DNA from: an uncultured bacterium
Lineage (GTDB): Bacteria; Patescibacteriota; Minisyncoccia; Phycocordibacterales; DATDWN01
Assembly (NCBI GenBank): GCA_963727715.1
Contig: CAVSGX010000003.1
Location: forward strand, 157-64,156
Length of the DNA stretch: 64,000 nt
Direction: 5' to 3'
The position numbers and the translations under genes are program-made. This document shows, piece by piece, positions 15,049 to 49,857 of the stretch (its first letter is position 1; every line of letters starts with the position of its first letter). The notes under the pieces were generated by a model. It ran no database searches and was not told the DNA's origin. It saw only the letters and a program-made list of their open reading frames with translations.

Positions 15049-15273
15049 CACAAAACCACACACAATTATTTTTCAGAGCACGGATAAATTTCTGCTGAAA
15101 TTTTCCTTTCGCTCAGCGATCAAGAAAACAATCAACTCTGATTCGTAGCTCTCCGCAAACAGCCTCGGCCGCCCCTTCTTTCAGAGGGGTCGCTGCTACG
15201 AGCTTACTTCATCCTCACTGTTGTTTTCTAATTGCTTCTGCAGTCTCTGAAGAATAATTGTGTGTGGTTTTGT
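15049..15273. repeat. MITE-like palindromic repeat, family A, copy 1
   Basis: TIR ACAAAACCACACACAATTATT..TCAGAG at both ends; conserved core CACGGATA..CTCGCTCAGCGATCAAGAAAACAATC..CGTAGC..GTTGTTTTCTAATTGC..GCAGTCTCTGAA with internal long inverted repeat (CAAGAAAACAA / TTGTTTTCT). Confidence 0.65.
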
Positions 15274-15299
15274 TAGTGCCAGATTCGAGTACGAAAAAA

Positions 15300-15922
15300 C
15301 TCCCATCTGCGTAATTGCAGACGAGAGTTGTGTGTGGAGGGGGGCGACTACTTATTCATTGCTAAGTTCGCAGTGTCTGCGAGCTTGAAGCTTTGTAACG
15401 TTCATCACCCCACTCTCCCTTGGTTTTGAAAGACATTTTTAATTCCCTTCAGCAGGCCTACGTTAGTTCGGCCAGATATCAGGAATCTACTAGTGCCCTT
15501 CTGGGTGGCCAAATGTCACCCGTATCGAGATTTTGGGTCAATCGGTGACCCGGTCCGGATTGGTAACTTTTAAGTTACCGACGCATCTAAATTCCCGAGT
15601 AACGCCCCGGGAAGAGGGTCACCCGCCCGGGATCCTAACTCGAACAAATTAAGGGGCGGGGCCCAGTGTCATTTCTTGTATTCCTGCCCGAGGAGATATC
15701 CGTCTGCGTTCATCACGCAAGTTTGGTAGGTTTTGCCGTACCTTTACCGGCCTCTTTTCGGGTGCGGGGGCTAGATACCCTCCTTTGGGCGCTAATTTTT
15801 AGGTGTAGCAGCCCTCATCCCGATCATCGTGATCGGAACCGCCGAAGATTTTTCCATGTCTTCGGTCAGGATTGGGTCCTAGTTTCCTAGGCCCGGCCCG
15901 ATTTCAGACGAGTCAAAGGCAT
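15300..15922 (+). ncRNA. rnpB: GC-rich structured noncoding region with RNase P RNA-like motifs (candidate rnpB); boundaries uncertain
   Basis: No credible ORF and GC well above local background. Motifs: GGTCCGGATTGG (P4 5' strand-like), GAGTAACGCC (P8/P9 GGUAACGCC), GGGTGCGG (P11-like GGUGCGG), GGCCCGGCCCGATTT (P4 3' strand-like CCCGGCUUA); many local hairpins. Confidence 0.35.
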
Positions 15923-16956
15923 CCCCTAGCCACCTTTGAAGTAGGACAGTTAGAATTAATGCATTAGTCGAAAATTAATTTTAATTGTCATATGAAAAAC
16001 AAATATCATCATTTGTCTTTTGAAGAGAGGTTTTGTATTGAAAAGATGTATTGCGCCGGTTCGGCCATTCGCAAAATTGCCGAATTTCTCGGTCGGAGTG
16101 TCAACACTGTGAGCAGAGAAATACAAAAACACAGTGTTAATGGGGTGTATGAAGCGGAAAAAGCCAAGCAGAAAGTTTCAATGAAAAGATGGCGAGCCAA
16201 ACAGCAGTGTCTGAAAGTGGCGCTTGACCCGTTTCTCTGTCGATTCGTGGTGGAACGATTAACCAAGCCGTATCATTGGTCGCCGAAGCAGATTAGCGGG
16301 TATCTTGAATGTGAAATGGGTATCATCTGCTCGGCCAAAGCCATATACAAATTTGCCGAGTCGAGAGGTCTAAACCACCTGCTTTTTTGGGGTTGGAACA
16401 ATCACAAGGGTGGGAGAAAACGAAATCATTGGAAGCACATTCAGGATGGCAGGAAGTATATTGATGTCAGACCGGAGAGAAAAGGTCTAGGACACATTGA
16501 GCTCGATTTCATCGTTTCCAAAGACAGTTCGTGGGTACTTTTGGTTGCTGTGGATTGGCAAGCCAAAAGAACATGGGTCAGGAAACTGCCCAACAGAAAA
16601 CGCGACACTATTCGTGCCGCGCTTTCCCGTCTGTTCCATGGTGTTGAATTGAAGAGCATCACCACAGACAACGATATTGCATTCACCTGTTGGAAAGAGT
16701 TGGAAACTCTCCTGCAAGTGCCAATCTATTTTACACATCCATACCATTCTTGGGAAAAAGGTCTGGTGGAAAACACCAACAGATGGATCAGATGTTTTGT
16801 GCCTAAACGAAGAGATATTGAGTCAGTCACTGAGGAAGAATTGCAAGAAATACATTCCTTCCTAAACAACCGACCGAGAGAAGTGATTGGCTTCCGCGCG
16901 CCAATGAGTTATTATTCAAACATTAGTTCTGTCCTACTTGAGGGGTAATTGGAGGC
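15923..16956 (+). mobile_element. IS30-family insertion sequence, copy 1
   Basis: Boundaries taken from identity with the second copy at 36785-37830 (shared ends CCCCTAGCCACCTTTGAAGTAGGAC ... GTCCTACTTGAGGGGTAATTGGAGGC); single transposase ORF. Confidence 0.8.
15992..16948 (+). CDS. IS30-family DDE transposase
   Basis: 318 aa; N-terminal HTH; C-terminal DDE region (..DNDIAFTCW..E..) typical of IS30 transposases; about 99% identical to the copy at 36756-37751. Confidence 0.85.
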   Translation: MKNKYHHLSFEERFCIEKMYCAGSAIRKIAEFLGRSVNTVSREIQKHSVNGVYEAEKAKQKVSMKRWRAKQQCLKVALDPFLCRFVVERLTKPYHWSPKQISGYLECEMGIICSAKAIYKFAESRGLNHLLFWGWNNHKGGRKRNHWKHIQDGRKYIDVRPERKGLGHIELDFIVSKDSSWVLLVAVDWQAKRTWVRKLPNRKRDTIRAALSRLFHGVELKSITTDNDIAFTCWKELETLLQVPIYFTHPYHSWEKGLVENTNRWIRCFVPKRRDIESVTEEELQEIHSFLNNRPREVIGFRAPMSYYSNISSVLLEG

Positions 16957-17151
16957 ATCATATTCCGCAATAAGCCTATCACAGAATAAAAAATCTGTCA
17001 AGTGATTTTGGAAAAAAAAGCAAAATTCTTTTTCTGAATTCAAAAATAACCTTATTTTAAGCCATTTTTGAGAGGTCAAAAAATATTGAGTAATTTTTGT
17101 TTTTTGTTCTTTTCCAACTTTTTACCACGAACACTTTAAATTTCTGGTCAC

Positions 17152-19431
17152 TCACTTTGCCACTGCCACAGCTTCGTCAAAAGCCACCGAGAGCAGTTTG
17201 GAACCGCCGTTTTGGTTCATTGTCACGCCGTAAAGAATGCCGGCACGGGACATTGTTTCGCGATTGTGAGTGATGACGATGAGTTGGGAAAATTTGGAAA
17301 GGTTCTCCAGCATATCGGCGTATTTTTTTGAGTTGGCTTCGTCGAGGGCCGCGTCGGTTTCGTCCAAAATAATAAATGGTGGAGGATTGACTTGAGAGAT
17401 GGCAAAAAGCAAAGCGATGGATGTCAAAGCTCTCTCGCCTCCGGAAAGCATCATCAAACCTTTGACTTTCTTTTTCGGCAGAACAACTTCTATTTCAATT
17501 CCCTCTTCTTCTTTATCATCCTCAGCAAATTCTTCCTCTTCATTTGTTTGTGTTTGTTCCATATCTAAGTTTTCATCGCCAAACAAAAGGGTGTCATCTC
17601 TACTTTTCTTTTTTACTATTTTAATAATTGTCAGTTCCGCCTTTCCTCCGCCAAACATCAAAACAAAATAATCTTGGAATTGGGCGTTTATTTTTTCTAC
17701 GCCGATTTTAAACTCGCTATTCAAACGACCGTCCAAGTCAGCGATGAGTTCGGTCAAAGAATCAGCTGATTTTTCCAGATCGGTCAACTCCCTGGAAAGA
17801 AAAGCATCTCGCTCGGAAATTTCGTTGTACTCTTTCAAAACATCGGCTCCACCGACGTTGTCGCTGTCTTCCAAACGGATTTTTATCTTCTCAATTGTTC
17901 GCCTTCGCTCCTCCTGTTTTTCGCGCGGTTCGGAAAAATCAAAAACAAGCAACTGAAATTGCAAAACAGCTGGTCCGAGCATCATAGAAAGTTCGGTTAT
18001 TTCTCTTTTGAAATCATCTCGAACAATGCGCAAAGTTTCTTCCTCACTGGCTAGGGCGCGCAAATCGGAGTGCACTTCCTGTTCTTCGGCCATAATCCGA
18101 AAAACCGCTTTCTCGGCGTCACGGCCGGAATCTTTCTCCTTATTTATTTTTTCCTGCAAAGCCGAATACTCGGCTGAAAGTTTTTGTTCTTCGTCGACAA
18201 TTTTTTGCATTTGCTCGGCCACCATCTTTTTGTCATCAGCCAAAACATCTAAATCTTTTTGAGCTTCGCCGAGAAGAGTGGTGTCCACCTTGTCTTTGTT
18301 GTTGTCAATGAATTCGGAAATGGCGGAACTTATTTCATCCAGCGCCTTTAAAATCATCTCCATGTTTTGCAAATTTTTTGCGCCGGATATTTTTTGATTG
18401 ACATTTTGGTAAAGGGCTTCCACCGAAACCAGTGTGACGGTTTTGTGAAGATATGAATTGGCGATTTCCTCCTGTTTTTTTATCATTCGCGACAGAGAAA
18501 TAATTTCTCCATCCAGCCGTCCCGACTCGCGCAAAAGCTCGTCTTTTTTCTGGCGAACAGCCGAGAGTTCATTCCCCAAAGAAATTAGTTTGTTGCTGGT
18601 CAAATCGCGGTGCTCGGCATTTTCCAAAATATTTTTGGCGGTTTCAAGTTCTTTTTTCAAACGATCTTCCTCTTTTTTTAATGGTCTCTTTTTTTCTTCA
18701 ATTTCAGTTGTTTTGCGTTTGATGTATTCATCCTCTCGTCGCAAATATTCCATGGCCTGCTCGTGCAATTCTTCTTTCATCCGTAAAGTTTTCTGGTTTT
18801 TCTCCACCTGCTTTTTCAAAAATTTAATGTGGGGCAAAATTTCCCGACGCAAAGATTCCACTTGCCGAATATTTTCACGCGTCTTTTCCAATTTTTTCTG
18901 GCTTTCCTGTTTTTTGTATTGGTACATCTTCAAACCCAAAGCGTCCTCAATCATTTCCCGACGCTCTTTCGGACTTGCTCCCAAGATTCTGTCAGCCTCG
19001 CCTTGCGAGATAATGTGATGACCGGAGGCGCCGATGTGAGCCGAAGCCAAAAGTTCAACCACATCGCGCAGACGCACCTGCGAGCCATTAATCAAATATT
19101 CATTCACTCCATCGCGGTGAACTACCCGTTCCACTAAAACATCTTCAAAATCAATAGGCAGAAATTTTTTGCTGTTATCAAAAACAACTTTGACTGAAGC
19201 CCGACCGGCTCTGGGCAAATCTCCCACTCCGTTCCAAATCAAATCCTCACCGCGTTTGCCACGCAAAGATTTGATGGACTGCTCGCCGAGGACAAAACGA
19301 AATGCCTCGGCAATATTTGATTTGCCGGAACCATTTGGCCCGACGATAGCCGAAATCGGCGAAGAAAACAAAAGCTCGCTTTTCTTGGCGAAACTTTTAA
19401 AACCGGAGAGTTCGATGCTTTTCAGATACAT
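17152..19431 (-). CDS. smc: Chromosome segregation protein SMC (short form)
   Basis: Walker A GPNGSGKSNI; long coiled coils; signature LSGGERALTSIAL and Walker B FIILDETDAALD. Start trimmed to MYLKSIELSGFKSF because the upstream extension is translation of a MITE. Confidence 0.85.
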   Translation of the reverse strand: MYLKSIELSGFKSFAKKSELLFSSPISAIVGPNGSGKSNIAEAFRFVLGEQSIKSLRGKRGEDLIWNGVGDLPRAGRASVKVVFDNSKKFLPIDFEDVLVERVVHRDGVNEYLINGSQVRLRDVVELLASAHIGASGHHIISQGEADRILGASPKERREMIEDALGLKMYQYKKQESQKKLEKTRENIRQVESLRREILPHIKFLKKQVEKNQKTLRMKEELHEQAMEYLRREDEYIKRKTTEIEEKKRPLKKEEDRLKKELETAKNILENAEHRDLTSNKLISLGNELSAVRQKKDELLRESGRLDGEIISLSRMIKKQEEIANSYLHKTVTLVSVEALYQNVNQKISGAKNLQNMEMILKALDEISSAISEFIDNNKDKVDTTLLGEAQKDLDVLADDKKMVAEQMQKIVDEEQKLSAEYSALQEKINKEKDSGRDAEKAVFRIMAEEQEVHSDLRALASEEETLRIVRDDFKREITELSMMLGPAVLQFQLLVFDFSEPREKQEERRRTIEKIKIRLEDSDNVGGADVLKEYNEISERDAFLSRELTDLEKSADSLTELIADLDGRLNSEFKIGVEKINAQFQDYFVLMFGGGKAELTIIKIVKKKSRDDTLLFGDENLDMEQTQTNEEEEFAEDDKEEEGIEIEVVLPKKKVKGLMMLSGGERALTSIALLFAISQVNPPPFIILDETDAALDEANSKKYADMLENLSKFSQLIVITHNRETMSRAGILYGVTMNQNGGSKLLSVAFDEAVAVAK

Positions 19432-19459
19432 GAGAATATGATAACACAAATTTCTTTCT

Positions 19460-19607
19460 GCCAAAATCTTTTCCGCCACCAGAATAATTTTCTGGTGAAA
19501 ATTTTCTTCTCGCTCGTCGGTCAAGAAAACAATATCCTCGATGCGTATGCTCGCATCTATGTCTTTGTTTTCTAACCTCCTGCGCGATGTGCCGGAAAAG
19601 ATTTTGC
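19460..19607. repeat. MITE-like repeat, family A, copy 2 (internally deleted)
   Basis: TIR GCCAAAATCTTTTCCG / CGGAAAAGATTTTGC; retains the CTCGCTCGTCGGTCAAGAAAACAAT and GTTTTCTAACC core pieces. Confidence 0.5.
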
Positions 19608-21056: not shown

Positions 21057-21088
21057 AGTTTATTCAAATTCTCGGCTTCTTATAATTT

Positions 21089-21275
21089 TTTTGAAACATC
21101 GCGCAGGAAATTAGAAAACAACGACGAAGATGGAGTAAGCTCGGAGCAGTGACCCTCCTGAAAGAGAGGGCGACCTCAGCAGAGGTCGTTTGCGGAGAGC
21201 TACAAGTCGAGGAAGATTGTTTTCTTGATTTCCGAGCGTAGTAATTCGCCAGCAGGCGAATATACGTGTTTCAAA
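21089..21275. repeat. MITE-like repeat, family A, copy 3 (inverted relative to copy 1)
   Basis: Its reverse complement aligns almost base for base with the copy at 42129-42337. Confidence 0.6.
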
Positions 21276-21295
21276 AAAATTATACAGAAGCCAGT

Positions 21296-23510: not shown

Positions 23511-25947
23511 TCAAGAGATGACAAAATTCAGGAGACGGTTTGGAATATGAATTATTTTTAGAACATTTTTGTCGGCAAGCCACTTATCCACACCGGGTAC
23601 TTTCCGAGCCATGGTCACAAGCTCGTCTTTGGACATATCGCGCGCCACCGTGATCTCTGCTCGGACTTTGCCGTTGACCTGAATGACCACACTGACTTCC
23701 CCGCTTTGCATTTTGGCTTTGTCAGCCTCCGGCCATTTCTCGGAAACCAAAAATGTTTTATGACCGAGATTGTGCCAAAGCTCATCGCTTATGTGCGGAG
23801 CGAACGGCGACAAAATTTTCAGAAAAATTTCAAAATATTTTTGTGGCACAGCCGACGCTTTTTCAAATTGGCCGATTAAAATCATCATAGCCGAAATAGC
23901 TGTATTGAAATGCATAATCTCAATATCACCCGAAACTTTTTTGACAGTTTGGTTTAAAAGTATTTCAAGATTTTTATTTTGACCGGCTTTTTCGGATATT
24001 TTCTCTTGCAATTTCCAAACTCGTTCCAAAAATCTTCGCGAACCGGAAATGCTATTTGTGTCCCAGTTGATGGCCTGATCAAATGGGCCCATAAACATTT
24101 CATAAACACGCAAAGTGTCGGCGCCATAAGTTTTAACAATGTCGTCCGGGTTGATAACATTGCCACGCGATTTGGACATCTTCTCGCCGTTCTCGGCCAA
24201 AATGAATCCGTGCGATGTGCGTTTTTTGTACGGCTCGCTTGTCGGCACCAGTCCGATATCAAACAAAAATTTGTTCCAAAATCGCGAGTACAAAAGATGC
24301 AGCGTAGTGTGTTCCATTCCGCCGTTGTACCAATCCACAGGCATCCAGTATTTCAGTTTTTTCATGTCGGCGAATTTTTTGAAATTTTTTGGATCAGCAG
24401 TAGCGCAGAAAATACCAACTGGATCCGGCCCAGTTTGGCATCGTATCCGTTTCGCGCTTGGCCTTGCCTCCACACTTTGGGCATTTGGTGTTGACCCATT
24501 TTGAAATGTTGGCCAGTGGCGACTCGCCGGTTTCTGTCGGCTGATATTTCTCCACTTTCGGCAATTTCAGTGGCAAATCTTTTTCCGGCATAGCAACCAA
24601 TCCACAATTTTCGCAATCCACAACCGGAATCGGCTCGCCCCAGTAGCGTTGTCGTGAAAAAACCCAATCGCGCAGTTTAAATGTTTCTGTCATTTTACCA
24701 CCTGCAAACTCGGTGATTTTTTTCTTGGCTTCTTCACTTTTCATTCCGTCAAATTTGCCGGAGTTGATCATTTTTCCTTCTCCAACATAAGCTTCTTTCA
24801 TTTCTTCCACATTATTTTCAGATGACACCACTTCTTTTATAGGCAAACCATATTTTTTTGCAAACAAAAAATCACGCTCATCATGGGCCGGCACAGCCAT
24901 AACCGCGCCCGTGCCATAGTCGGCCAAAACATAATCGGCAATCCAAACCGGCATTTCTTCGTTGTTTGCGGGATTAACCACCAAAACTCCATTCAATCTC
25001 ACACCCGGTTTTTTCCTTTCGTCGTTTGTCCGTTCAATCTGCGCCGTCTTTTTTGTCTGTTCAAGTATTTTTCGACTTCCGGCTAATTTTTGATTTCCTC
25101 TTTCCAACTTCTGTACCAAGTGATTTTCTGGTGCAACAACCAAATATGTCACACCAAACAAGGTATCCGGCTCGTGTGGTGAAAACTTTTACTTACATTT
25201 TGAAATTTGGATTTTGGATTTATTTGTCATTTGAAATTTGGATTTTGAAATTTATTTCCGCCCCTTCCGAACGCCCAATCCAGTTTCTCTGCTGTAATTT
25301 TTATTTTCTCCAAATAATCCACCGTATCCAAATCTTTGTCCAGACGGTCGGCGTATTTGGTAATGCGCAGCATCCACTGTTCCTTTTCGCGTTTCTCCAC
25401 CGGTGTGCCGCAGCGTTCACATTTGCCGTTCACCACTTCCTCGTTGGCCAGGCCGATTTTGTCTTTCGGACACCAGTTGATGGCGATTTTGCTTTTGTAA
25501 GCTAAATCGTGTTTAAAAAATTGCAGAAAAAGCCACTGCGTCCATTTATAATATTTCGGGTCAGTCGTGTTGATTTCGCGCGACCAATCAAAAGAAATTC
25601 CAAGATAGTTTTATTTGCCGGCGAAAATTTTCCGATATTTTTTTTGGTTACTTCGGCTGGTTGCACGCCGGTTTTGATGGCGTAATTTTCTGTCGGCAAA
25701 CCAAAAGCGTCCCAACCCATCGGATACAGCACATCGTAGCCTTCCATCCTGCGTTTGCGCGCGACGATATCAATCCGATGTATGGTCGTGGATGTCCGAC
25801 ATGCAAGCCATCGCCTGACGGGTATGGAAACTCCACCAGCGCGTAATATTTGGGTTTCTTTGAAAAATCTTCAGCCTGAAAAATTTTCTTTTTCTCCCAT
25901 TCTTTCTGCCATTTTTTTTCTATCGTTGAGTGATTGTACACTTTCAT
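23511..25947 (-). pseudogene. leuS: Leucyl-tRNA synthetase interrupted by at least 4 frameshifts (assembly errors or a pseudogene)
   Basis: Five consecutive ORF fragments (25648-26184 HIGH region HVGHP, 25502-25747 [11 protein letters not shown], 25227-25436, 24394-25161 editing domain, 23511-24473 KMSKS and anticodon-binding domain) are collinear with LeuS; breaks fall at homopolymers such as T8 near 25637. Confidence 0.8.
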
Positions 25948-26014
25948 GATTTTTAAATAATACATAAAAAACCGCTTCTTGGCAAAGCGGTTTTTGCTGG
26001 TAATTTGTTTAATA

Positions 26015-26944
26015 TCATTTTGCGACTGGCACTGGAAAAACTTGCGGATAAGCAACCGGTTGTTTTGTGATTGTCTGACTAAGACAATATCTGCCGGCCG
26101 AATGACGTAGATAAGTATAACCAATATTTTCACCCGGATAAGCACTTTGAGGATTGGCTTTGTTAAACACGGCGCAAACTTCAAACGTCGTATCGCTGGT
26201 TTTTATGTACTCATATTGATTATGAGTCTGCGGATCTGTTGGAATGACGTAATAATTATTTAATGTGGCCAAATCAACAAGCGACTCCGGTAAAACATTT
26301 TTTGAATAGAAATAATTTTGAACCTGTCCGCTGATGCTTTGCAAGTCACTGACTCTTTGCTGATCATATTTGTAAAGTTGTTGTGTCCACGGCGAGCCGA
26401 GTACGGCAAATCCCCAGACGATTGAAGCGACGATAATAAGCAAAGCCAAAACAACCCACGATTTTTTTTCGTGTGAAGTTAGTGTTTTGCGAATATCGGA
26501 AATGTAGTAAAGAAAAACCAACCCGGTCACGACAAGCACGGATAAAACTTTTAGAAGAAACCCGGTGGTCATTTCCTGTCCGTCAAGAAAATAATAAAGC
26601 ACGGTCACCAAATCTCCGGCCAGCGTCAGTCCGGCGATGAAAAGGGTGATGTATGTCAGCCACTTGCGCACGCCAAGATTTTTTTTCTCTGGTTCCATGA
26701 GATAACTTTTTTCCAAAAACCATGAGAGCAAAATGAAAATCGGAAAGAAAATTATCAATGTAGCTACCGGAAAGCTGATGGAACTACTGCCTACATAATA
26801 ATAGTCTGTGATTTTTGGGTAAGCTTGGTTAATTACGGTGAAAAGTAAATTGAGCAAAGAGACAACCGTCGTGTAAAGTGCGACAATGGCGCCGAGGTTT
26901 AGAAAAAAATCCTTGGCACTCGTTTTTGGTTTTTGTGGGTCCAT
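26015..26944 (-). CDS. Hypothetical polytopic membrane protein
   Basis: 309 aa; about 6 predicted TM helices in the N-terminal two-thirds, then a soluble C-terminus. Confidence 0.4.
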
Positions 26945-36234: not shown

Positions 36235-36245
36235 TGTGTGTAGTG

Positions 36246-36400
36246 TAAACCCTGTCGCTTGTATTCCTCGAAAGGCAATCTGTCTGGCAAAGCTTTGTCA
36301 GCGAACTTCTCGTCGCTCAAGAAAATTATGTTCGGAATACCTCACTAGTTTTCTAAGCTCCTGCGAAAGGCCTTTCTCGAAATACTAGCGACAGGGTTTG
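36246..36400. repeat. MITE-like palindromic repeat, family B, copy 1
   Basis: TIR AAACCCTGTCGCT.GTATT / AATACTAGCGACAGGGTTTG; core CAATCTGTCTGGC..AGCGAACTTCTCGTCGCTCAAGAAAATTATGTTCGGAATACCTCACTAGTTTTCTAAGCTCCTGCGAAAGGC. Confidence 0.6.
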
Positions 36401-36451
36401 TCTGTCAAAATTCCTTTCTCGACAATCAAGAAAATAATTCTACCAGAAGTT

Positions 36452-36755: not shown

Positions 36756-37751
36756 TTAGGTGTATAATATAGGTAGGAGGTGAGGCCTCCCAATTACCCC
36801 CTCAAGTAGGACAGAACTAATGTTTGAATAATAACTCATTGGCGCGCGGAAGCCAATCACTTCTCTCGGTCGGTTGTTTAGGAAGGAATGTATTTCTTGC
36901 AATTCTTCCTCAGTGACTGACTCAATATCTCTTCGTTTAGGCACAAAACATCTGATCCATCTGTTGGTGTTTTCCACCAGACCTTTTTCCCAAGAATGGT
37001 ATGGATGTGTAAAATAGATTGGCACTTGCAGGAGAGTTTCCAACTCTTTCCAACAGGTGAATGCAATATCGTTGTCTGTGGTGATGCTCTTCAATTCAAC
37101 ACCATGGAACAGACGGGAAAGCGCGGCACGAATAGTGTCGCGTTTTCTGTTGGGCAGTTTCCTGACCCATGTTCTTTTGGCTTGCCAATCCACAGCAACC
37201 AAAAGTACCCACGAACTGTCTTTGGAAACGATGAAATCCAGCTCAATGTGTCCTAGACCTTTTCTCTCCGGTCTGACATCAATATACTTCCTGCCATCCT
37301 GAATGTGCTTCCAATGATTTCGTTTTCTCCCACCCTTGTGATTGTTCCAACCCCAAAAAAGCAGGTGGTTTAGATCTCTCGACTCGGCAAATTTGTATAT
37401 GGCTTTGGCCGAGCAGATGATACCCATTTCACATTCAAGATACCCGCTAATCTGCTTCGGCGACCAATGATACGGCTTGGTTAATCGTTCCACCACGAAT
37501 CGACAGAGAAACGGGTCAAGCGCCACTTTCAGACACTGCTGTTTGGCTCGCCATCTTTTCATTGAAACTTTCTGCTTGGCTTTTTCCGCTTCATACACCC
37601 CATTAACACTGTGTTTTTGTATTTCTCTGCTCACAGTGTTGACACTCCGACCGAGAAATTCGGCAATTTTGCGAATGGCCGAACCGGCGCAATACATCTT
37701 TTCAATACAAAACCTCTCTTCAAAAGACAAATGATGATATTTGTTTTTCAT
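36756..37751 (-). CDS. IS30-family DDE transposase (copy 2, C-terminally extended)
   Basis: 331 aa, identical to copy 1 except G115D and the extra C-terminal VIGRPHLLPILYT. Confidence 0.85.
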   Translation of the reverse strand: MKNKYHHLSFEERFCIEKMYCAGSAIRKIAEFLGRSVNTVSREIQKHSVNGVYEAEKAKQKVSMKRWRAKQQCLKVALDPFLCRFVVERLTKPYHWSPKQISGYLECEMGIICSAKAIYKFAESRDLNHLLFWGWNNHKGGRKRNHWKHIQDGRKYIDVRPERKGLGHIELDFIVSKDSSWVLLVAVDWQAKRTWVRKLPNRKRDTIRAALSRLFHGVELKSITTDNDIAFTCWKELETLLQVPIYFTHPYHSWEKGLVENTNRWIRCFVPKRRDIESVTEEELQEIHSFLNNRPREVIGFRAPMSYYSNISSVLLEGVIGRPHLLPILYT

Positions 37752-37830
37752 ATGACAATTAAAATTAATTTTCGACTAATGCATTAATTCTAACTGTCCT
37801 ACTTCAAAGGTGGCTAGGGGAGGGCTATGA
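36785..37830 (-). mobile_element. IS30-family insertion sequence, copy 2 (inverted relative to copy 1)
   Basis: Near-identical to 15923-16956 in reverse orientation; a 1-nt difference at the transposase stop extends the ORF by 13 codons into flanking DNA. Confidence 0.8.
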
Positions 37831-40043: not shown

Positions 40044-40086
40044 ACTGACATACTATCTCAAAAAATGATTTGGCGCAAAAAGACAA

Positions 40087-40223
40087 AACAATAAGGTTTT
40101 CTCAGAGCAATCTGTCTGGCTCTACTGAGCCAGCGAACTTCTCGTCGCTCAAGAAAATTATGTTCGGAGTACCTCACTAATTTTCTAAGCTCCTGCGAAA
40201 GGCTCTGAAAAAACTTTATTGTT
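40087..40223. repeat. MITE-like palindromic repeat, family B, copy 2
   Basis: TIR AACAATAAGGTTTTCTCAGAGC / GCTCTGAAAAAACTTTATTGTT; core nearly identical to copy 1 at 36246-36400. Confidence 0.6.
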
Positions 40224-40269
40224 TTGTCACCGGATATTTATTTTCAAATAAAAAAATCACCGTCTGACA

Positions 40270-40802: not shown

Positions 40803-42083
40803 TTATTTGGGATTTCCCCTCAATGGCAGTTCCCAATCAGGTATAGTTTTCAAAATTTTCTCAGCAGTTATCATCTCTGATTTGTCGGATGTGCGAAATT
40901 TCATTTCTATTTTTCCTTCGGCCACTGTTTTTTCGCTGACGACCAGTCGCACGGGTATGCCCAAAAGATCGGAATCGGCGAATTTTTCTCCCGGACGCAA
41001 ATCGCGGTCGTCGTAGAGAACTTCCACTCCGGCTTTGTCGAGTTTTTGGTACAAATCACCGGTCGCTTTTTTGACTTCAGTTGAATCGCCAATTTGTAGA
41101 AGATGCATGACAAAAGGGGCGACGGACTTCGGCCAAATGATTCCTTTCTCATCGGCCAAAAGTTCAACGATTGTGCCCATAAGTCTTTCCAGGCCAATGC
41201 CGTATGAGCCCATGAAAACCAGCTTGTCTTCCCCATTTTCATTTTTGTATTTCAAATCAAACGGTTCTGAAAATCTTGTGCCGAGCGTGAATATGTTGCC
41301 CACCTCAATAGCTTTCTTTTCCACAAAATCTTTTTTGTTCGTGCCGATTTCTTTTAAAACTTCATCATTCCAAACTTCTTTGTTGACCGCGATTTTTTTA
41401 TCTTCGTTCACAAAAATGGTGTCCTCTCCAGCTTCACAAACTGTTTGAAATTCGTGCGAAAATTTAGAAAAAGTACCACCGGAGGCAAAAGTCAGATAAG
41501 TTTTGTCTCCTATGCCGGTGCGATTGAAAATATTTTGGTAGGCCGTTTTGGCTTTCTCGTAAAAAACATTGTGCTCGGATTCGTCTTTGGAAAATGAATA
41601 CAAAGCCTTCCAATAAAATTCTCGGACTCTCATAATTCCTGATTTACTTCTGGCTTCGTTTCTGAAAATTTCTTTGAAGTCGTAAGGGTAAACCGGCAAG
41701 TCTTTGTATGAGCTGACATATTGTTTCAAAATGTTTGAATAGGCTTCCTCGTTGGTGAACGACAGGCCGACTTCCCCGCCATTTTTCAGTTTCGTTTTAA
41801 ACCAACTGTCCACAACTTCGTCGTCCCATCTGTTTGATTTCTCCCAGACTTCTTTGTTTTGCAAAACGGATGTTTTCATCTCTACACCGCCGATAGCGTC
41901 TATTTCTTCTCTGATGATGTTTTCAATTTTTTTTATAACCCGCAGACCGAGTGGCAAATATGAATAAACCCCGGCCATTTCTTTGTGAATATATCCGGCG
42001 CGGATCAAAAGCTCCGCATTTTTTGACACCTCATCCGCCGGCGCCTCCCGACGCGTTTTTGTAAAAAGTTGTGATTGTCTCAT
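40803..42083 (-). CDS. proS: Prolyl-tRNA synthetase (short bacterial type lacking the editing insertion)
   Basis: Class II motifs; 426 aa; C-terminal anticodon-binding domain. Confidence 0.85.
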   Translation of the reverse strand: MRQSQLFTKTRREAPADEVSKNAELLIRAGYIHKEMAGVYSYLPLGLRVIKKIENIIREEIDAIGGVEMKTSVLQNKEVWEKSNRWDDEVVDSWFKTKLKNGGEVGLSFTNEEAYSNILKQYVSSYKDLPVYPYDFKEIFRNEARSKSGIMRVREFYWKALYSFSKDESEHNVFYEKAKTAYQNIFNRTGIGDKTYLTFASGGTFSKFSHEFQTVCEAGEDTIFVNEDKKIAVNKEVWNDEVLKEIGTNKKDFVEKKAIEVGNIFTLGTRFSEPFDLKYKNENGEDKLVFMGSYGIGLERLMGTIVELLADEKGIIWPKSVAPFVMHLLQIGDSTEVKKATGDLYQKLDKAGVEVLYDDRDLRPGEKFADSDLLGIPVRLVVSEKTVAEGKIEMKFRTSDKSEMITAEKILKTIPDWELPLRGNPK

Positions 42084-42128
42084 AACTTCATTCTATATCA
42101 AAAAAGTTTTTTGAGCAAAAAAGCACAC

Positions 42129-42337
42129 TTTGAATCATTTCTTAAAACACGCATATTCGCCTGCTGGCGAATTGCTACGCTCGTCAATCAAGAAAACAAT
42201 ATCCTTAATTCGTAGCCCTACGCAAACGACCTCTGTTGAGGCCGTCCTCTCTTTCAGGAGGGTCGCTGCTTCGGGTTTACTTCATTTTCGTCTTTGTTTT
42301 CTAATTGACTGCGCGATGTTTTAAAAAATGATTCAAA
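42129..42337. repeat. MITE-like repeat, family A, copy 4
   Basis: TIR TTTGAATCATTTCTTAAAACACGC / GCGCGATGTTTTAAAAAATGATTCAAA; conserved core (CAATCAAGAAAACAAT..CGTAGC..GTCTTTGTTTTCTAATTG). Confidence 0.65.
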
Positions 42338-42351
42338 ATATGCAAACAGAT

Positions 42352-43083: not shown

Positions 43084-43464
43084 TTATTTAACCAATTTTT
43101 TTGCAGATTTAATTTGTATTCTATCTTCTTTAGTATAATCACCAAAACCAAGAGATTTTCCTTTCGGGATTCTTTCATATTCACACAAAAAATGGTCTCC
43201 ATTTTGAATAGAGTTGTATTCTTCTTCTGTCACAGAAAACTCACCCTCTATATCTCCCATCTTCAAATGGACTAGGTAAAATGTTTTTGAACCACCAAGC
43301 CCAAATCTCATTTGTAATGCATAGTTGCCTAGTGTATTAACAATCTCTTTTCCAGTTACAACACCTTCACCTTTGCGAGTATTTTCTTTTTCTGTTTGTT
43401 TTTCTTTTTCACTAATTTTGATCATAGCAGCTGTAGCTCCAACCGCCCCAAGTGCACCTAACAA
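43084..43464 (-). CDS. Hypothetical small secreted or membrane protein
   Basis: 126 aa; N-terminal hydrophobic segment; very AT-rich local sequence. Confidence 0.3.
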   Translation of the reverse strand: MLGALGAVGATAAMIKISEKEKQTEKENTRKGEGVVTGKEIVNTLGNYALQMRFGLGGSKTFYLVHLKMGDIEGEFSVTEEEYNSIQNGDHFLCEYERIPKGKSLGFGDYTKEDRIQIKSAKKLVK

Positions 43465-43527: not shown

Positions 43528-44454
43528 CTACTTTTTCAGTAAAATATTAATGGCTTTTGTTACCAGAGGCAAAATGTCGTTGTAGAAGTTGAGTTCCAAA
43601 ATATCGCCCATTTTAAACCAGCGGGCGTCATCAAGACCGCCGGTGTTAGAAAGTTTGAGGTCCACAAACGGCGACTCCACCAAAAAGTAAGCCACGTGTT
43701 TTTTGATTTTGCCTTTTTCTGGGTGGTAGCTTATGTATTCGTTCTCGCCGAGCTTTTCTTTGATTTTCACATCCACGCCAATTTCGTCTTTGATAACTTT
43801 GGCCACCTCAGCTTCCGGATCGCTGCCCTCAATGTGACCTTTGGAAAGAGTCCAACGACCGAAAACATCGTGCACCAGCGCCAGGTAGATGTCGTCGCCG
43901 GAGTGAGCGAAAACCACCGCGCCGGCCAGATATTCTGTCGGCACGTTTGCCGGAATAACACCTTTTTTCTTGTCTTTGGTTGTTTCGTCTTTGCCCGGTT
44001 CGCCGAGCTCTTTGTAAACCGCGCCCAAAACACCGTTGATGAATTTGCTGGAAGTTTCTCCGCCGAAACTTTTAGATAACTCAATGGCTTCGTTGATAGC
44101 CACTTTTGGCGGAACCTGCGAGTGATCGGCAAAAAGAAGCTCGTAAAGCCCGATGCGCAGAATATTTCTGTCCATTACGTTGATTTTGTCTATCGGCCAG
44201 TCCGGCGCGGCTTTTTCAATAACCAAATCCAAATCTTTTTTCTTGTCCAAAACACCTTTGAGGAGATCTTCCATAAACGAAAAATCGCCCATACCAGGAG
44301 CGAACTCTTCTGCATCACGCTTAAATATTTCCATTGCTTCCGCGCGGTTTTTGCTGTTGAAATCCCATTCGAACAGGGATTGCAAGACTATGCTTCTGGA
44401 AAGGTGCCGATTAGCCATTTGTACAATTATATAAAGGTCAAGAAAAAGATGCAA
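43528..44454 (-). CDS. nusB: NusB (transcription antitermination) fused to a C-terminal Nudix hydrolase domain
   Basis: N-terminal NusB pattern (LSRSIVLQSLFEWDF...AINEAIELSKSFGGETSSKFINGVLGAV); C-terminal Nudix-box-like GHIEGSDPEAEVAKVIKDEIGV in a 150-aa domain. Confidence 0.7.
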   Translation of the reverse strand: MHLFLDLYIIVQMANRHLSRSIVLQSLFEWDFNSKNRAEAMEIFKRDAEEFAPGMGDFSFMEDLLKGVLDKKKDLDLVIEKAAPDWPIDKINVMDRNILRIGLYELLFADHSQVPPKVAINEAIELSKSFGGETSSKFINGVLGAVYKELGEPGKDETTKDKKKGVIPANVPTEYLAGAVVFAHSGDDIYLALVHDVFGRWTLSKGHIEGSDPEAEVAKVIKDEIGVDVKIKEKLGENEYISYHPEKGKIKKHVAYFLVESPFVDLKLSNTGGLDDARWFKMGDILELNFYNDILPLVTKAINILLKK

Positions 44455-44480
44455 GTCAATCCGATAGAAAATTTCTTTTG

Positions 44481-44667
44481 CCCCAAAATTTTTCAGAGCA
44501 CGGATATTTTTCTACTGAAAAATTCCTCTCGCTCGGCAATCAAGAAAACAATCGTCCTCGACTCGTAGCCCTATCGCAAACTCGCTTCGCTCAAACACTG
44601 CTTCGGGCTTACTCCGTCTTCGTCGTTGTTTTCTAATTGCCTCCGCAGTCTCTGAAAAAATTTGGGG
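44481..44667. repeat. MITE-like repeat, family A, copy 5
   Basis: TIR CCCCAAAATTTTTCAGAG / CTCTGAAAAAATTTGGGG; full conserved core. Confidence 0.65.
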
Positions 44668-44684
44668 CAAAAGAGATAATCAAA

Positions 44685-45326: not shown

Positions 45327-46031
45327 TCAAAAATGTGTGCAGAAAGTTTTGCGGTGCAGGGGCGAAAGACCGTGAGCGGAAATGGCTAAGCGGTGTCTAG
45401 TCGTGCCATAACCTTTGTGAATTTCAAAGCCATACCGTGGGAATTTTTTGCCGGCGCGTGTCATTAGTGCGTCGCGCGAGACTTTGGCCAGAATGCTGGC
45501 CCAAGCGATAATTTTTTCTTTCTCATCGCCTTTTATTATCGTTTTTTGATTTTTGAACTCTGCTGGCGCTTTGAGTGAACCGTCCAAAAGCACTTGGCAA
45601 TTTTTTGGGTTCAGTTTCAATTTCTCAATCCCCTTTCCAACCGCTGTTTTGATGCAAAAAGAAAGTCCTTTTTTGTCGATGGTTTTGTTGGAGATGTGGA
45701 TAATTGAGTAGTTGAAAATTTCTTTCTCCCCAAGTCTCTCGCGAAAAACGCGTAAAATTTCTGCTGAAATTTTCGCTCTTTCTTGCCTGCCCGGCTCCGA
45801 GAGGTTTCCGCTCGAAACTTGGGTCAACAAAATTTTCAAATTACTCAAAAATTCGGCATATTTTTGACGAGAGATTGGAGAAAGTTTTTTGCTGTCGAGG
45901 CCTCGCGGTGGCAGATTTTTGTTTCTTTTCAGTTTTTTATAAAAATTTTCCTCGCAAACAACCACACAAACAGTCACAGGCCCAGCCAAAGGTCCTCTCC
46001 CGACTTCGTCAATACCAACTATATAATTCAT
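45327..46031 (-). CDS. rnhB: Ribonuclease HII
   Basis: GIDEVGRGPLAGPV active-site motif; 234 aa. Confidence 0.88.
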   Translation of the reverse strand: MNYIVGIDEVGRGPLAGPVTVCVVVCEENFYKKLKRNKNLPPRGLDSKKLSPISRQKYAEFLSNLKILLTQVSSGNLSEPGRQERAKISAEILRVFRERLGEKEIFNYSIIHISNKTIDKKGLSFCIKTAVGKGIEKLKLNPKNCQVLLDGSLKAPAEFKNQKTIIKGDEKEKIIAWASILAKVSRDALMTRAGKKFPRYGFEIHKGYGTTRHRLAISAHGLSPLHRKTFCTHF

Positions 46032-46318: not shown

Positions 46319-46468
46319 TGCTACCCCTAATTTTAGAGTCTAAACATTTTTCAAATTTTGTCAAGCGGGCGGGGAATGAGAAATTTGGTACAATGGGTTC
46401 ACAATGACTTCTAAATTTACCCACCCCAGTAGCAGAGCATAGCTCGCTACGGAGCAAGTCTTCACACC

Positions 46469-49400
46469 ATGCAAAAATTTACACACTTACATACACATAG
46501 CCACTACTCTTTACTTCAAGCTTTGCCGAAAATTGACGAGCTGGTTAAGACGGCCAAGAAGATGGGCATGGAGTCACTGGCTTTGACTGACAACGGCAAT
46601 CTTTACGGGGCCATTGAATTTTACAAGGAATGCGACAAGCACGGTGTCAAACCGATTATCGGTGTGGATTTTTATGTGGCGTTTGGATCTAGGCTAGAAA
46701 AACGCGCTGGCGTGGACAAGGAGCGATATCGGCTGGTGCTTCTGGCCGAAAATGAAATCGGCTATAAAAATTTGATTCAGCTTGTGACCGTCTCCCACCT
46801 TGAAGGTTTTTATTACAAACCGCGAGTGGACAAGGAAGTTTTGGAAAAATATCACGAAGGACTTATTGTCATCTCGCCGTCTTTCTCCGGCGACATAGTC
46901 AAATCTCTTGGAATGTCGCGTGATGATGAAGCTCTATCTCGACTTGATTGGTACAGAGAAATTTTCGGACCAGATAATTTTTTTCTGGAAATCACTCATC
47001 ATCCGGAAATAAAAGGTCATCAGGAAAAAATGAAAAAACTTGTGAGCTTTGCCCGAAAGAACAAACACTCCCCTCGTCGCCTGCCACGATGTCTATTATA
47101 TGTCGCCAGAGGACAGACCGGCTCGCGAGACTTTGATGTCTGTTATGAACAACGGCGACTTTTCCGACAGGCAAGATGAAAAAACAGATGACTTCTCTTT
47201 CATTTCACAGGAGACAGCTGAAAAATATTTTGCCGATTTACCGGACGCTTTAGAGAACACTGAGAAAATTGCCGAGAGATGCAATTTGAAATTGGAACTT
47301 GGCAAATGGGTCTTCCCGAATTTCGTCGTGGAAAGCGGGCTCTCGCACGATGAAGAATTAAAAAAACTGACATACGAAGGATTGGTCAAGAGAAATGTTG
47401 AACAAACGAAAGAAGTGACGGAGAGAATAGAATATGAGTTGAGAATTATTTTCAATAAAGGTTATTCGCCGTACTTTCTGGTTGTCGGCGATCTGATGCG
47501 CTACGCTAGCGAGAACGGTATTCTCTCAAACATTCGCGGTTCGGTTTCCGGCTCGCTGGTCACTTACCTCGCCGGTATCACCAACATCAACCCGCTGGAA
47601 TACGACATTCCTTTTGAACGATTTCTTGAACCCTGATCGCCCATCACCGCCGGATATTGATATGGACTTTGCCGACAACCGTCGAGATGAAATGGTGGAA
47701 TACGCCAAACGAAAATATGGCGCGGACAAAGTGGCCCAGATCGGCACTTTCGGCACAATGGCCGCTCGCGGCTCGGTGCGTGATGTGACACGCGCTATGG
47801 GTTTTCCTTACGCACTTCGGTGACAGCATCGCCAAAATGATTCCGTTCGGCGCGCAAGGTTTCCCAATGACCATTGACCGCGCGCTCGCCGAAGTGCCGG
47901 AGTTGAAAGAACGTTTACGACAGCGAAGTAGATGTCAAAACAATAATTGACATGGCCAAAAAAATTGAAGGTTGCGCTCGGCACATGGGCATTCACGCCG
48001 CCGGCGTGGTTATGGCGCCGACGCCGATTACCGATTACACTCCGCTTCAATACGATCCAAAAGGTGAAGGTAAAATCATCACCCAGTATGATATGTATTC
48101 CATTGAAGAGGCCGGACTTTTGAAGTTTGATTTTCTGGGATTGCGAAATCTTTCCATTATCGCCGACACTTTGGCTTTGATAAAAAAATTGGACAATGTG
48201 GATTTTGACGCCGGAAGAAATTCCAATCAATGACAAGAAAACTTTTGAAATGTTGGCGCGAGGCGAAACAGCCGACCTTTTCCAACTCAACGGCGACGGA
48301 ATGACTAAATTTTTGATTGATCTTAAGCCGACCGCCATTCACGACATCAACGCCATGGTCGCTTTGTATCGTCCCGGACCTTTGCAATTTATTCCGCTTT
48401 ACATTCAGGGCAAACACAATCCAGCTAAAGTGAAATATCTAGACCCGATGCTCAAACCAATCTTACAAAAGACTTACGGCGTGCTGGTTTATCAAGACGA
48501 TCTTTTAATGATGGCCAGAAATATTGCCGGCTATTCTTGGATTGAAGTGGACAAATTCCGCAAAGCTGTCGGCAAAAAAATTCCGAAGGAGATGCAGGAA
48601 CAAAAAGAGAAATTTATAAACGGATGCGTGGAACATTCCAAGTGGCCGCTAAAAAAAGCGCAGGAGCTTTGGACATGGATCGAACCTTTCGCCGCTTACG
48701 GTTTCAACAAAGCCCACTCTGTTTCCTACGGTCTCGTGGCCTACCAGACGGCTTACCTCAAAGCCAACTTTCCAGCCGAATATATGGCCAGCGTTTTGAC
48801 TCACCACGACGGCGATGTGGAAAAAGTGTCCGAGTCGGTGCAAGAATGCAAACGCCTCGGTATTTCCATTTTACCACCGGACATCAACGAATCGTTCAAA
48901 GTTTTCACTGTCATAAAATCAAAAACAGCTGACCAGCCAGATAACATTCGTTTTGGACTTAACACCATTAAAAATTTCGGCGAAGGAATTTCCGAATCAA
49001 TAATTTCCGAGCGCAAGAAAAATGGGCCGTACAAATCTCTGTCGGATTTTTTGCGCCGAGTCAAAGATAAAAACCTCAATAAAAAATCTCTGGAGTCGCT
49101 TATCAAAACCGGCGCCCTAGACTCCCTCGGCGATCGCTTCACACTCCTCCACAATCTTGACCGGCTACTGACTTTTCATAAAGAAGAAACAAAATCAGAA
49201 ACAAACCAAGACTCGCTTTTCGGACTTTTTGCCAGCGCGTCGCACAATGAAGTTGAGTTGGAAAAAGCGCCGATCACAAATCAGACAAACAAATTGCAAT
49301 GGGAGAAAGAACTTCTCGGCCTCTACATTTCGGGACACCCGCTAGATAATTTTCGCCACAAACTTGATGGTCGCGAAATGACAATTAAAAAAATTAAAGA

Positions 49401-49662
49401 AACAGTCAAAGATAAGCAAGAAGTAGTTTTTGGCGGGATGATTGAAGAGATAAAACCGATTATGACCAAATCCGGAGACAAAATGGCTTTCATCAGGGTG
49501 GCTGACCTCTCCGGTTCAATTGAAACAGTGGCTTTTCCGAAAGTTTTGGCTGAATTTGTCGACATCCTCGCCCCCGAATCCTGCGTGGTCATCAAAGGAA
49601 CACTCTCTCTGCGCAACGGCGAAAAAAGCGTGTTGATGGAAAAGGTCAGGATGATGGAGTAA
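46469..49662 (+). pseudogene. dnaE: DNA polymerase III alpha subunit interrupted by at least 5 frameshifts (assembly errors or a pseudogene)
   Basis: Collinear fragments 46469-47179 (PHP domain), 47049-47636, 47614-47823, an unannotated stretch 47824-47951, 47952-48233, 48196-49662 (fingers, beta-binding, OB). One break reads CGTTTACGACAGC where ERYDSEVD needs CGTTACGAC, an extra T. Confidence 0.8.
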
Positions 49663-49670
49663 AACAAAAA

Positions 49671-49857
49671 CCAATCATATTTTTCCGAGCACGCATAAAG
49701 TCCTGCTGGACTTTTGCTCTCGTTCGGCAATCAAGAAAACAATCTCCTCAATGACGGGGCTCTCGGCAAACTCACTTCGCTCAAACACTGCCTTCACCCT
49801 CTTTCATTTTGTCGTTGTTTTCTAATTACCTCCGCAGTCTCGGAAAAATATGATTGG
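49671..49857. repeat. MITE-like repeat, family A, copy 6
   Basis: TIR CCAATCATATTTTTCCGAG / CTCGGAAAAATATGATTGG; conserved core. Confidence 0.65.

Follow-up and report, generated by a model that had tools for sequence, protein, structure and literature searches.

Rickettsia palindromic elements (RPEs) are palindromic repeats of ~100–150 bp that make up several families within a reduced, host-dependent genome; they occur between genes or in frame within unrelated housekeeping genes, which are translated through them, and a transposase for them is not known (PMC10969869). Judged by behaviour, RPEs are the closest analogue of the elements described here, which are long hairpins in a 64,000-nt stretch of DNA (the window) from an uncultured bacterium of the Patescibacteriota (Minisyncoccia, Phycocordibacterales; assembly GCA_963727715.1, contig CAVSGX010000003.1, positions 157–64,156). 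A preliminary description, made from the letters alone, had listed six copies of one family, here family A, and had considered them to be nonautonomous transposable elements or else duplicated structured RNA or terminator modules. All six copies are present at the places given, and they belong to a superfamily of DNA repeats, built as nested palindromes, that is specific to Patescibacteria, the candidate phyla radiation (CPR). The family appears to be undescribed; no account of these elements was located in full-text searches of the literature on Saccharibacteria, Patescibacteria and the candidate phyla radiation.

For this taxon a sequence relationship to RPEs would not be expected, and the likeness is one of behaviour, namely palindromic repeats in a reduced genome with in-frame insertions into genes, here rnhB and rnr, and the insertions into genes are a property of short-type relatives and not of the six long copies. 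Long family A copies differ from RPEs in being stop-rich and exclusively intergenic, with arms that are hypervariable around a conserved core. The CPR family also spans phylum-level lineages and not one genus, and at one codon the element has opposite orientations in two genomes. Repetitive extragenic palindromes (REPs) and bacterial interspersed mosaic elements (BIMEs) are palindromes outside genes, at gene ends; they are maintained as DNA, are thought to be recognised as folded single strands, often form nested or clustered mosaics and are mobilised in trans; a REP is 20–40 nt long with a conserved GTAG head. We know of no REPs within open reading frames (ORFs). The CPR elements, at 90–290 nt, are longer, nested and different in sequence, and no Y1_Tnp domain, as would be expected of a REP-associated tyrosine transposase (RAYT), is present among the ~40 window ORFs.

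Prokaryotic MITEs (short for miniature inverted-repeat transposable elements) of type II, such as Correia/NEMIS, RUP and ERIC, are small, non-coding, dispersed and hairpin-forming, are polymorphic between strains and sometimes lie in genes (PMC10969869). The CPR elements share this general appearance, being small, non-coding, dispersed hairpins that are polymorphic and in some cases located inside genes. However, MITEs are defined by terminal inverted repeats (TIRs) that copies share with one another and with a parent insertion sequence (IS), and by target-site duplications (TSDs), whereas the CPR elements vary at their ends and are conserved inside. In the IS200/IS605-derived palindrome-associated transposable elements (PATE), in other systems of single-strand DNA transposition and in the attC sites of integrons, imperfect hairpins with conserved bulges are recognised on one folded strand, and structure is kept over sequence. 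Each CPR element forms one giant hairpin and not a pair of subterminal ones, neither TnpA nor TnpB is found among the window ORFs nor IntI nearby, orientation shows no bias by local GC skew, a weak proxy on short contigs, such as would be predicted if single strands were targeted on the lagging strand, and the neighbours are housekeeping genes and not cassettes. With REP/RAYT, IS200/IS605 and attC the elements have the idea of a folded-strand substrate in common, but not the anatomy or the partner genes.

The 23-nt core pattern CGYTCRNNRRTCAAGAAAACAAT matches the window exactly six times, at the six family A loci and nowhere else, against 0.00 matches expected from 100 dinucleotide-preserving shuffles; the match in the inverted copy 3 is on the minus strand (21216–21238). 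A direct-repeat search of the window returned the shared core blocks of the five plus-strand copies at 15067–15254, 19502–19598, 42169–42327, 44487–44659 and 49678–49848, with a 5′ block ..CGCTCGGCAATCAAGAAAACAAT.. and a 3′ block ..GTTGTTTTCTAATTGC..GCAGTCTC.. in common. When scored with a covariance model (CM) of window and foreign copies, the six reach 102.8–194 bits (E 1e-23 to 1e-46). Each copy is one long hairpin of 140–225 nt, bounded by an inverted repeat of 18–29 nt that is 89–100% complementary (Table 1), and the long copies are ~75–90% alike among themselves. Copy 2, a medium form, bears a ACAAATTTCTTTCT motif at its 5′ end and has close homologues in loci L040, L026, L005 and L050 (3292–3434), relative loci being given here as L with a number. 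Copies 3 and 4 form a subfamily with an AAACACG...GATGTTT base. Locus L017 is identical to the window and so offers no polymorphism for comparison.

The intergenic placement reported earlier holds for all six long and medium copies of family A, with two neighbours to be amended. Copy 1 had been put after gyrA, yet it lies upstream of the gyrA start, as the gene runs on the minus strand from 14984 to 12507. The gene called proS, beside copy 4, does encode a class II aminoacyl-tRNA synthetase (aaRS), while its identity as ProRS is unsettled (426 aa, with tRNA-synt_2b and HGTP_anticodon domains and without the ProRS C-terminal domain). This gene (40803–42083, minus strand) has no DNA-level match to the 485-aa ProRS, with ProRS-C_1, at the corresponding place in L019 and may encode a different class II synthetase; synteny with L019 breaks at the gene, which adjoins copy 4. 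The arms had been called copy-specific, and they do vary, but not wholly: several end in ACAAA...TTTGT, many start with AAATTTCTTTCTC, and some are recognisably homologous to one another. Spurious extension of ORFs by the elements is borne out by the smc ORF, which reaches 19524, and by the methyltransferase ORF, which ends at 12069, within an arm of the element that starts at 12059.

The six copies are not the full set. Model R1, our covariance model, and an inverted-repeat scan together give at least 11 hairpin elements in the window, totalling ~1.9 kb or ~3% of the 64 kb, and the relatives of family A are listed in Table 1. Two of these are assigned to family B; the 97-nt core of the second is 91% identical to positions 40107–40203 of the first. 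Directly after the second family B element stands a 5′ half element for which no matching 3′ half was found. Two hairpins are placed in a family C, of which the one at 12059–12226 goes undetected by model R1, its resemblance being architectural.

Homologues also occur in other genomes of the Patescibacteria. When the 23-nt pattern was run against 185,579 species-representative genomes, 13 loci came up, 11 of which are full homologues with both arms, the side hairpin and an outer inverted repeat of their own, in metagenome-assembled genomes (MAGs) of Saccharibacteria, Parcubacteria, Minisyncoccia and Zambryskiibacteriota. The other two matches, in Clostridia, are chance. A metagenome scan added 24 contigs, within which model R1 confirms 19 matches. 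Three matches to the 5′-arm pattern in viral contigs all lack the 3′ arm and were likewise put down to chance. Because retrieval of foreign copies required the block TCAAGAAAACAAT, ascertainment accounts in part for the invariance of TCAAGAAAACAAT, for the seeming scarcity of elements in each genome and for there being a single copy in every 8-kb locus. The retrieval pattern made no such demand on the junction sequences or on the 3′ block TTTTCTAA, which is invariant.

The sequences, when read by eye, depart from a plain palindrome in having a small side hairpin on the 5′ arm only. The 7-bp stem of this side hairpin varies by copy and covaries freely (aaatttc/gaaattt, attcgcc/ggcgaat, aaagtcc/ggacttt), with a constant loop of TGCT, TACT or TGGT. 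From the base upwards, the element consists of an outer helix that is often ACAAA.../AAATTTC-like, an asymmetric loop conserved in short and medium forms (5′ TTTCTC, 3′ TCAAC), a variable and near-perfect stem of 10–25 bp, and a conserved junction AGAGCACGSATA ... CCGCAGTCTCT. Short-type members aligned from five genomes share the outer helix, the TTTCTC/TCAAC loop, the variable stem, the junction and the side hairpin as a common chassis. To this the long form of family A adds a conserved helix GCAATCAAGAAAACAAT / GTTGTTTTCTAATTGC with a fixed CAA/TA asymmetry and a variable apical module on top, and can be written as the chassis plus the CAAGAAAACAAT/TTGTTTTCTAA helix plus the apical module. 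Short, medium, long and composite forms were seen, ranging from 90 to 290 nt. Long copies have stops in nearly all frames, and with 0.55 open frames per copy an RPE-like compatibility with ORFs was ruled out for them.

Covariation was measured over 31 copies in an alignment fitted to the covariance model, which gave 836 paired cells. In this sample 97.7% of cells are paired, compared to 82.6% after shuffling and at most 56.8% with partners slid; changes on both sides number 125 cells versus 35.8, and the covariation score is 0.411, versus 0.125 shuffled and at most 0.091 slid. An independent MAFFT/RNAalifold run recovered the same helices. Only 5 of the 836 paired cells (0.6%) are G-U. The outer arms of 27 copies hold 651 Watson-Crick pairs and 39 transversion mismatches; a further 9 mismatches would be wobbles if read on the plus strand, and 14 if read on the minus. 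Stable folding was confirmed for the two copies folded, and the strands behave alike: copy 1 as RNA gives −90.1 kcal/mol (z = −10.6) and −89.4 kcal/mol, and copy 5 as DNA gives −45.4 kcal/mol on the plus strand and −48.4 on the minus (z −8.9 and −8.7). With respect to flanking genes, 11 copies are sense to both, 5 antisense to both and 15 mixed (44 copies, all loci), and of the 44, 23 have negative and 21 have positive GC skew on the strand of the element, local skew on short contigs being a weak proxy. A lagging-strand or antisense bias, as might be read from the eight of nine window copies on the plus strand, was gone over the 44 copies and was discarded. Almost purely Watson-Crick pairing, symmetric mismatches, equal folding of the strands and random orientation point to a DNA-level palindrome rather than an RNA gene or a terminator, and we conclude that the constraint acts on DNA, be it on both strands or on the duplex or cruciform.

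Site occupancy was compared with relatives syntenic with 38.5–55.2 kb of the window, namely L019 (NusB 92% identical as protein) and L050 (~78–84% nucleotide identity in genes), and with L018, L045 to L049 and L052, which cover that interval in part. Nearly every element site differs between the window and its collinear relatives. The YbeY-FtsA spacer is 9 nt in the window; its occupant is of short type in L019, of family B in L050 and, in the Saccharibacteria contig L003, of the long form of family A. Between L32 and NusB, where the window has copy 5, L045 and L046 have family C, L019 a 290-nt composite with the same outer arms, L018 an unrelated A+T palindrome and L050 a bare 13-bp A+T hairpin, and L048 and L052 are empty. 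A family C homologue fills the NusB-rnc spacer of L018, and the aaRS-MreB spacer, which holds family B in the window, has a family A copy of long form in L024. At the site past dnaE, the window has copy 6, L007 a long copy in the opposite orientation, and L019 and L050 an ORF of 77–79 aa. Occupancy is thus polymorphic at these five orthologous sites and also at rnhB. The elements are discrete, dispersed, non-coding units and not pieces of a segmental duplication, and they behave like mobile DNA in that occupancy differs at nearly every orthologous site. In the YbeY-FtsA spacer the outer arms of the L019 and L050 elements are recognisably homologous and the interiors different, so that modules appear to be gained or lost inside a resident chassis.

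Small perfect palindromes, mostly of A+T, were observed at sites that are filled in other genomes: GAAATTTTT-c-AAAAATTTC at the YbeY stop codon (window 50547–50570), TTAAAAAATTCTT-caaaa-AAGAATTTTTTAA after L32 (L050 10885–10920), and one at rnhB codons ~64–71 of L050. A separate observation concerns the promoter context upstream of nusB (L045 860–880, L019 8040–8087, window ~44455–44470). By eye, the 3′ outer arm of the L045 element gives a TTGAAA hexamer 17 nt upstream of a conserved TATAAT, and elements may contribute −35 boxes to downstream promoters; a promoter scan showed no enrichment.

The short-type relative in rnhB is read through in frame, antisense to the gene. RNase HII is 234 aa in the window and 194–212 aa in most homologues, and the element encodes aa 64–106, a segment that does not align with solved RNase HII structures and is missing from the proteins of L007, L050 and L051. 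In-frame inserts are present in the window, L019, L052 and others, and the same loop carries inserts in at least six homologues, with three or four unrelated peptide sequences. One RNase HII homologue of 269 aa (P0122) has, besides the insert at this hot spot, a further 28-aa insert (NRSSYRSYSKTSLGLNERITAHSSLACF) after the LKR motif, so that rnhB of this clade has at least two permissive sites. In rnr of L048 and L049, an in-frame short-type element with 33-nt arms encodes aa 340–380 of RNase R, which is the exact gap in the alignment to the solved Bacillus RNase R; a copy from Saccharibacteria has nearly the same interior, CTCAAGTCTCGGCTACCCGCCTGCGAAG.

The rnhB element of L052 sits at the same position of the gene as that of the window (coding nt 195–317 and 194–318), but in the opposite orientation: the two are 91.8% identical as reverse complements and 51% on the same strand, and one of their differences in the stem is a clean C-G to A-T double change. 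Flanking rnhB sequence is 74.2% (5′) and 70.5% (3′) identical. As the element is more alike than its flanks, it has either a younger common ancestor or a much stronger constraint at the nucleotide level than rnhB. Two explanations fit the flipped element, an independent insertion at the same site or a resident element that was inverted and held near constant. At the insertion spot, insert-free rnhB genes carry a perfect 11-bp hairpin GTGTCAAAGAG-tct-CTCTTTGACAC (L050) or AAAAATT...AATATCTTTTT (L051). The outermost 6–9 nt on each side of the rnhB element align with codons of insert-free genes, at a divergence too great to fix the junctions, and this alignment hints that the outer helix may be supplied by the target site at rnhB. 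The idea that arms are inverted duplications of host flanks is compatible with the length arithmetic of RNase R; contrary to it, the supposed host-derived tract at the L32-NusB site is a conserved motif of the element itself.

Some observations on other genes touch on insertions and reading frames. The dnaE gene of L019 has a 93-nt in-frame insert (4555–4650; 31 aa, VRDDVIISQDLASSFQSKANEKSDKVYSSRR) that is not in window dnaE; it contains small hairpin modules (gagatgat-gtt-atcatctc and others) like those in composite interiors, without recognisable chassis ends. In L019 the dnaE orthologue is intact (1099 aa); compared with it, window dnaE (46469–49662) changes frame at least five times, and window leuS (23511–26184) is split into several ORFs. 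The broken genes are either assembly indel errors or pseudogenes, which bears on frame-based arguments in the window.

We consider it fairly probable that the elements are selfish palindromic repeats, RPE-, REP/BIME- and MITE-like in behaviour, non-autonomous and mobilised in trans. According to this proposal the element would work as DNA and not as RNA, and an enzyme acting in trans, not encoded beside the copies, would read conserved asymmetric features on the folded strand or cruciform and copy or move the element. Candidates for recognition are the one-sided hairpin with its fixed loop, the CAA/TA bulge and the TTTCTC/TCAAC loop. Insertion would take place preferentially at A+T-rich, hairpin-prone sites such as gene ends and permissive protein loops. 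Interior modules would come and go inside the resident chassis, giving rise to the short, medium, long and composite forms. Arms would need only to pair, with changes in one arm transferred to the other at the DNA level by templated quasipalindrome correction during replication; under this proposal the arms look copy-specific and the core constant because arm changes are templated from one arm to the other. Quasipalindrome template switching is an established mutational mechanism that turns imperfect inverted repeats perfect, one arm being copied from the other. It would yield paired double changes without G-T intermediates, as in the element arms, and we infer from that mechanism that such correction acts here.

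Of the earlier suggestion of a nonautonomous mobile element, a mobile-like character is supported, in that the elements are discrete, dispersed and non-coding, with mobile-like occupancy and in-frame insertions, while the shared TIRs and parent IS of a classical MITE are lacking. Size and copy number are as in MITEs, which are shorter than ~500 bp: the elements measure 90–225 nt, and the 64 kb hold at least five relatives besides the six copies. No conserved TIR was found across the family, in which only the short motifs ACAAA...TTTGT and AAATTTCTTTCTC recur. An autonomous partner with matching ends is likewise absent from the window, whose sole transposase is of the IS30 family. The two IS30-family copies are inverted with respect to each other, ~20 kb apart and each 0.4–0.7 kb from a hairpin element. 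They have ends CCACCTTTGAAGTAGGACAG... and inverted repeats of 18 nt, ACCTTTGAAGTAGGACAG / CTGTCCTACTTGAGGGGT; their transposase was considered as the cognate enzyme and ruled out, since the ends are unrelated to those of the elements and the IS has 18-nt inverted repeats of its own.

Several points weigh against selfish mobility. No TSD can be defined: the flanks of 27 copies lack a consistent direct repeat, filled and empty genomes are too divergent to fix junctions, and no filled/empty pair above 95% identity occurs among the genomes compared. The mobilising activity is hypothetical, because a Pfam scan of the ~40 window ORFs returned no HUH/Y1 enzyme, TnpB, reverse transcriptase or cognate transposase. 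There is no sign of a recent burst, the long window copies being alike only to the extent given above. The small hairpins at 'empty' sites may be targets, excision footprints or decayed and collapsed relics. Long copies and short types are linked by a chain of similarity (short types of L001 and L010 at E 1e-8 to 1e-10, the rnhB element at E 0.05) and by shared architecture. Finally, the blocks are equally conserved across phylum-level lineages, which could reflect purifying selection for a host function.

That last point leads to the proposal that the elements are host-maintained structural sites in DNA, where a chromosomal protein binds or extrudes a cruciform or hairpin and the family spreads only rarely; such sites might serve in managing supercoils, in replication, in organising the chromosome or in DNA uptake. 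Gyrase and IHF are bound in a comparable way by REP/BIME elements. We regard a host role of this kind as rather unlikely. In its favour are blocks as conserved between phylum-level lineages as within one genome, Watson-Crick-only pairing with symmetric mismatches and equal strand folds, the retention of ~3% of a very small genome as elements, and an rnhB element more conserved than rnhB itself. However, a given spacer may be vacant in close relatives or filled by another family, the insertions in essential genes look opportunistic, and no candidate binding protein was found.

A different account of how the elements move, to which we give a similarly low probability, is that hairpins home into hairpins, a folded single-stranded module entering a palindrome already in place, at its loop or between its arms, whether that is a host hairpin or an older element; this would be a new kind of mobile DNA. 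The outer arms would then belong to the locus and the inner modules to the family. Homing would explain the conserved core and variable arms, the repeatedly hit spacers, the interior swap between L019 and L050, the hairpins at empty sites and both orientations in rnhB. Spread could occur by template switching in replication without a dedicated transposase, or through an unrecognised CPR enzyme.

Structured RNA modules had been offered in the preliminary description; a structured non-coding RNA in which pairing is all that the outer stem requires, whether a multi-copy RNA gene or a cis-acting mRNA element such as an RNase III processing or stability module, is improbable. Very stable folds (z ~ −10), strong covariation in side hairpin and main stem, conserved asymmetric loops that suggest strand-specific reading, and the position of intergenic copies within operons, where they would be transcribed anyway, are all in keeping with an RNA. 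However, G-U makes up so few of the paired cells, wobble-type mismatches are similar on the two strands, strand folds are equal, orientation to flanking genes is random, near-identical elements occupy one rnhB site in both orientations, and relatives are translated in frame within rnhB and rnr. Rfam 15 likewise offers no family: across the whole window only tRNAs reach the gathering threshold, and copy 5 searched at E up to 10 gave nothing relevant, the best sub-threshold match having E 2.2 and 17.9 bits against a 45-bit cut-off. Duplicated terminator or bidirectional terminator modules, the remaining suggestion, are very improbable: the hairpins do lie in intergenic spacers with A-runs and T-runs flanking the basal stem (TTTTTCAGAG...CTCTGAAAAA), and small A+T hairpins stand just past stop codons at some empty sites, but a terminator scan gave 12 sites versus 12.4 expected, with no enrichment, none within the elements and no G+C-rich stem of 5–20 bp with a T-run, a canonical G+C-rich terminator (40283–40259) adjoins the element at 40082–40228, elements are found between co-transcribed essential genes and inside ORFs, and termination does not need a conserved 150-nt core.

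Table 1. Hairpin elements and associated features of the window (CM, covariance model; arms, outer inverted repeat)
Feature	Position	Strand	Form and setting	Arms	CM score
Copy 1 (family A)	15050–15273	+	Long; gyrA start on one side, on the other a 640-nt non-coding stretch and then an IS30-family IS	15050–15078/15245–15273, 29 nt, 97% complementary	167.1 bits
Copy 2 (family A)	19450–19607	+	Medium, without apical module; upstream of smc start	19462–19479/19589–19606	102.8 bits
Copy 3 (family A)	21081–21284	-	Long; between rseP (M50 peptidase) and frr	21081–21098/21267–21284, 100% complementary	163.1 bits (minus strand)
Copy 4 (family A)	42123–42343	+	Long, copy 3 subfamily; between rnc and class II aaRS gene	42123–42149/42317–42343, 27 nt, 89% complementary	164.4 bits
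Copy 5 (family A)	44471–44677	+	Long; between rpmF (L32) and NUDIX-NusB gene	44471–44498/44650–44677, 28 nt, 93% complementary	194 bits
Copy 6 (family A)	49666–49862	+	Long; directly 3′ of dnaE stop codon	49666–49689/49839–49862, 24 nt, 100% complementary	163.3 bits
Family B element	40082–40228	+	Core CTCAAGAAAATTAT...ATTTTCTAAG; between aaRS gene and mreB	27 nt, 93% complementary	54.7 bits, E 1.6e-11
Second family B element	36247–36399	+	Upstream of gene for penicillin-binding protein transpeptidase	30 nt, 87% complementary	26.9 bits
5′ half element	~36400–36440	+	AAAATTCCTTTCTCGACAATCAAGAAAATAAT; pattern match 36427–36438		
Short-type relative in rnhB	45712–45839	+	Chassis only; side hairpin AAAATTTC-TGCT-GAAATTTT		17.1 bits, E 0.05
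Family C hairpin	12059–12226	-	Core GGTTTTGTCAATGACCCGAG; side hairpin GCTCGGC-NNNN-GCCGAGC	31 nt, 100% complementary	
Second family C-like hairpin	63328–63445	+	GGTTTTGTCAATGACCCGAG and side hairpin with TACT loop	26 nt, 81% complementary	
IS30-family IS	15922–16960	+	The two copies 1041 bp, 99.5% DNA identity; HTH_38 + rve transposase, 317/318 aa identical		
IS30-family IS	36781–37821	-	As above		
rnhB (RNase HII, 234 aa)	45327–46031	-	Aligned to homologues and solved RNase HII structures		

Three neighbouring features of the window were also noted. Between copy 1 and the IS30-family element, 15290–15921 is a comparatively G+C-rich stretch of ~630 nt with no convincing ORF, no Rfam match at E up to 1 and nothing similar in the relative loci compared; decayed DNA or a large RNA that escaped recognition could account for it. 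Between nusB and rnc (43084–43464, minus strand) lies an ORF of 126 aa that has no Pfam match. L019 has an ORF of equal length between rnc and the aaRS gene (9751–10131), and L050 and L048 have none called in either position. The window ORF may represent a small mobile gene, or else non-coding DNA miscalled as a gene. The gene at 43528–44454 (minus strand) fuses NusB to an N-terminal NUDIX domain, a fusion widespread in Paceibacteria-like genomes; its ORF is 308 aa in the window and 296 aa in relatives, the 12 additional codons probably stemming from a start at a TTG within or beside copy 5. The fusion protein is matched best in MAGs labelled Paceibacteria/Zambryskibacteria, in line with a Patescibacteria member of that kind as the source of the window.

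The elements are an annotation problem, as they extend or create ORFs (smc, the methyltransferase gene and 60–90-aa 'genes' over elements) and mark synteny breakpoints. As a clean natural data set they should be of use in studying how palindromes evolve at the DNA level, with Watson-Crick-only pairing and compensatory change in the absence of G-U intermediates. They also raise a concrete question, that of the enzyme which would recognise the conserved asymmetric core; phylogenetic profiles drawn from thousands of CPR genomes offer a way to approach it. Genomes of the CPR are among the smallest of cellular organisms and are usually called streamlined. Here, nested palindromic repeats take up ~3% of a 64-kb stretch made up of core housekeeping genes, and copies related to them lie inside the essential genes rnhB and rnr. 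If selfish, they would add to that of Rickettsia a second major case in which the proteins of reduced genomes are remodelled by palindromic selfish DNA, and one that spans phylum-level lineages.

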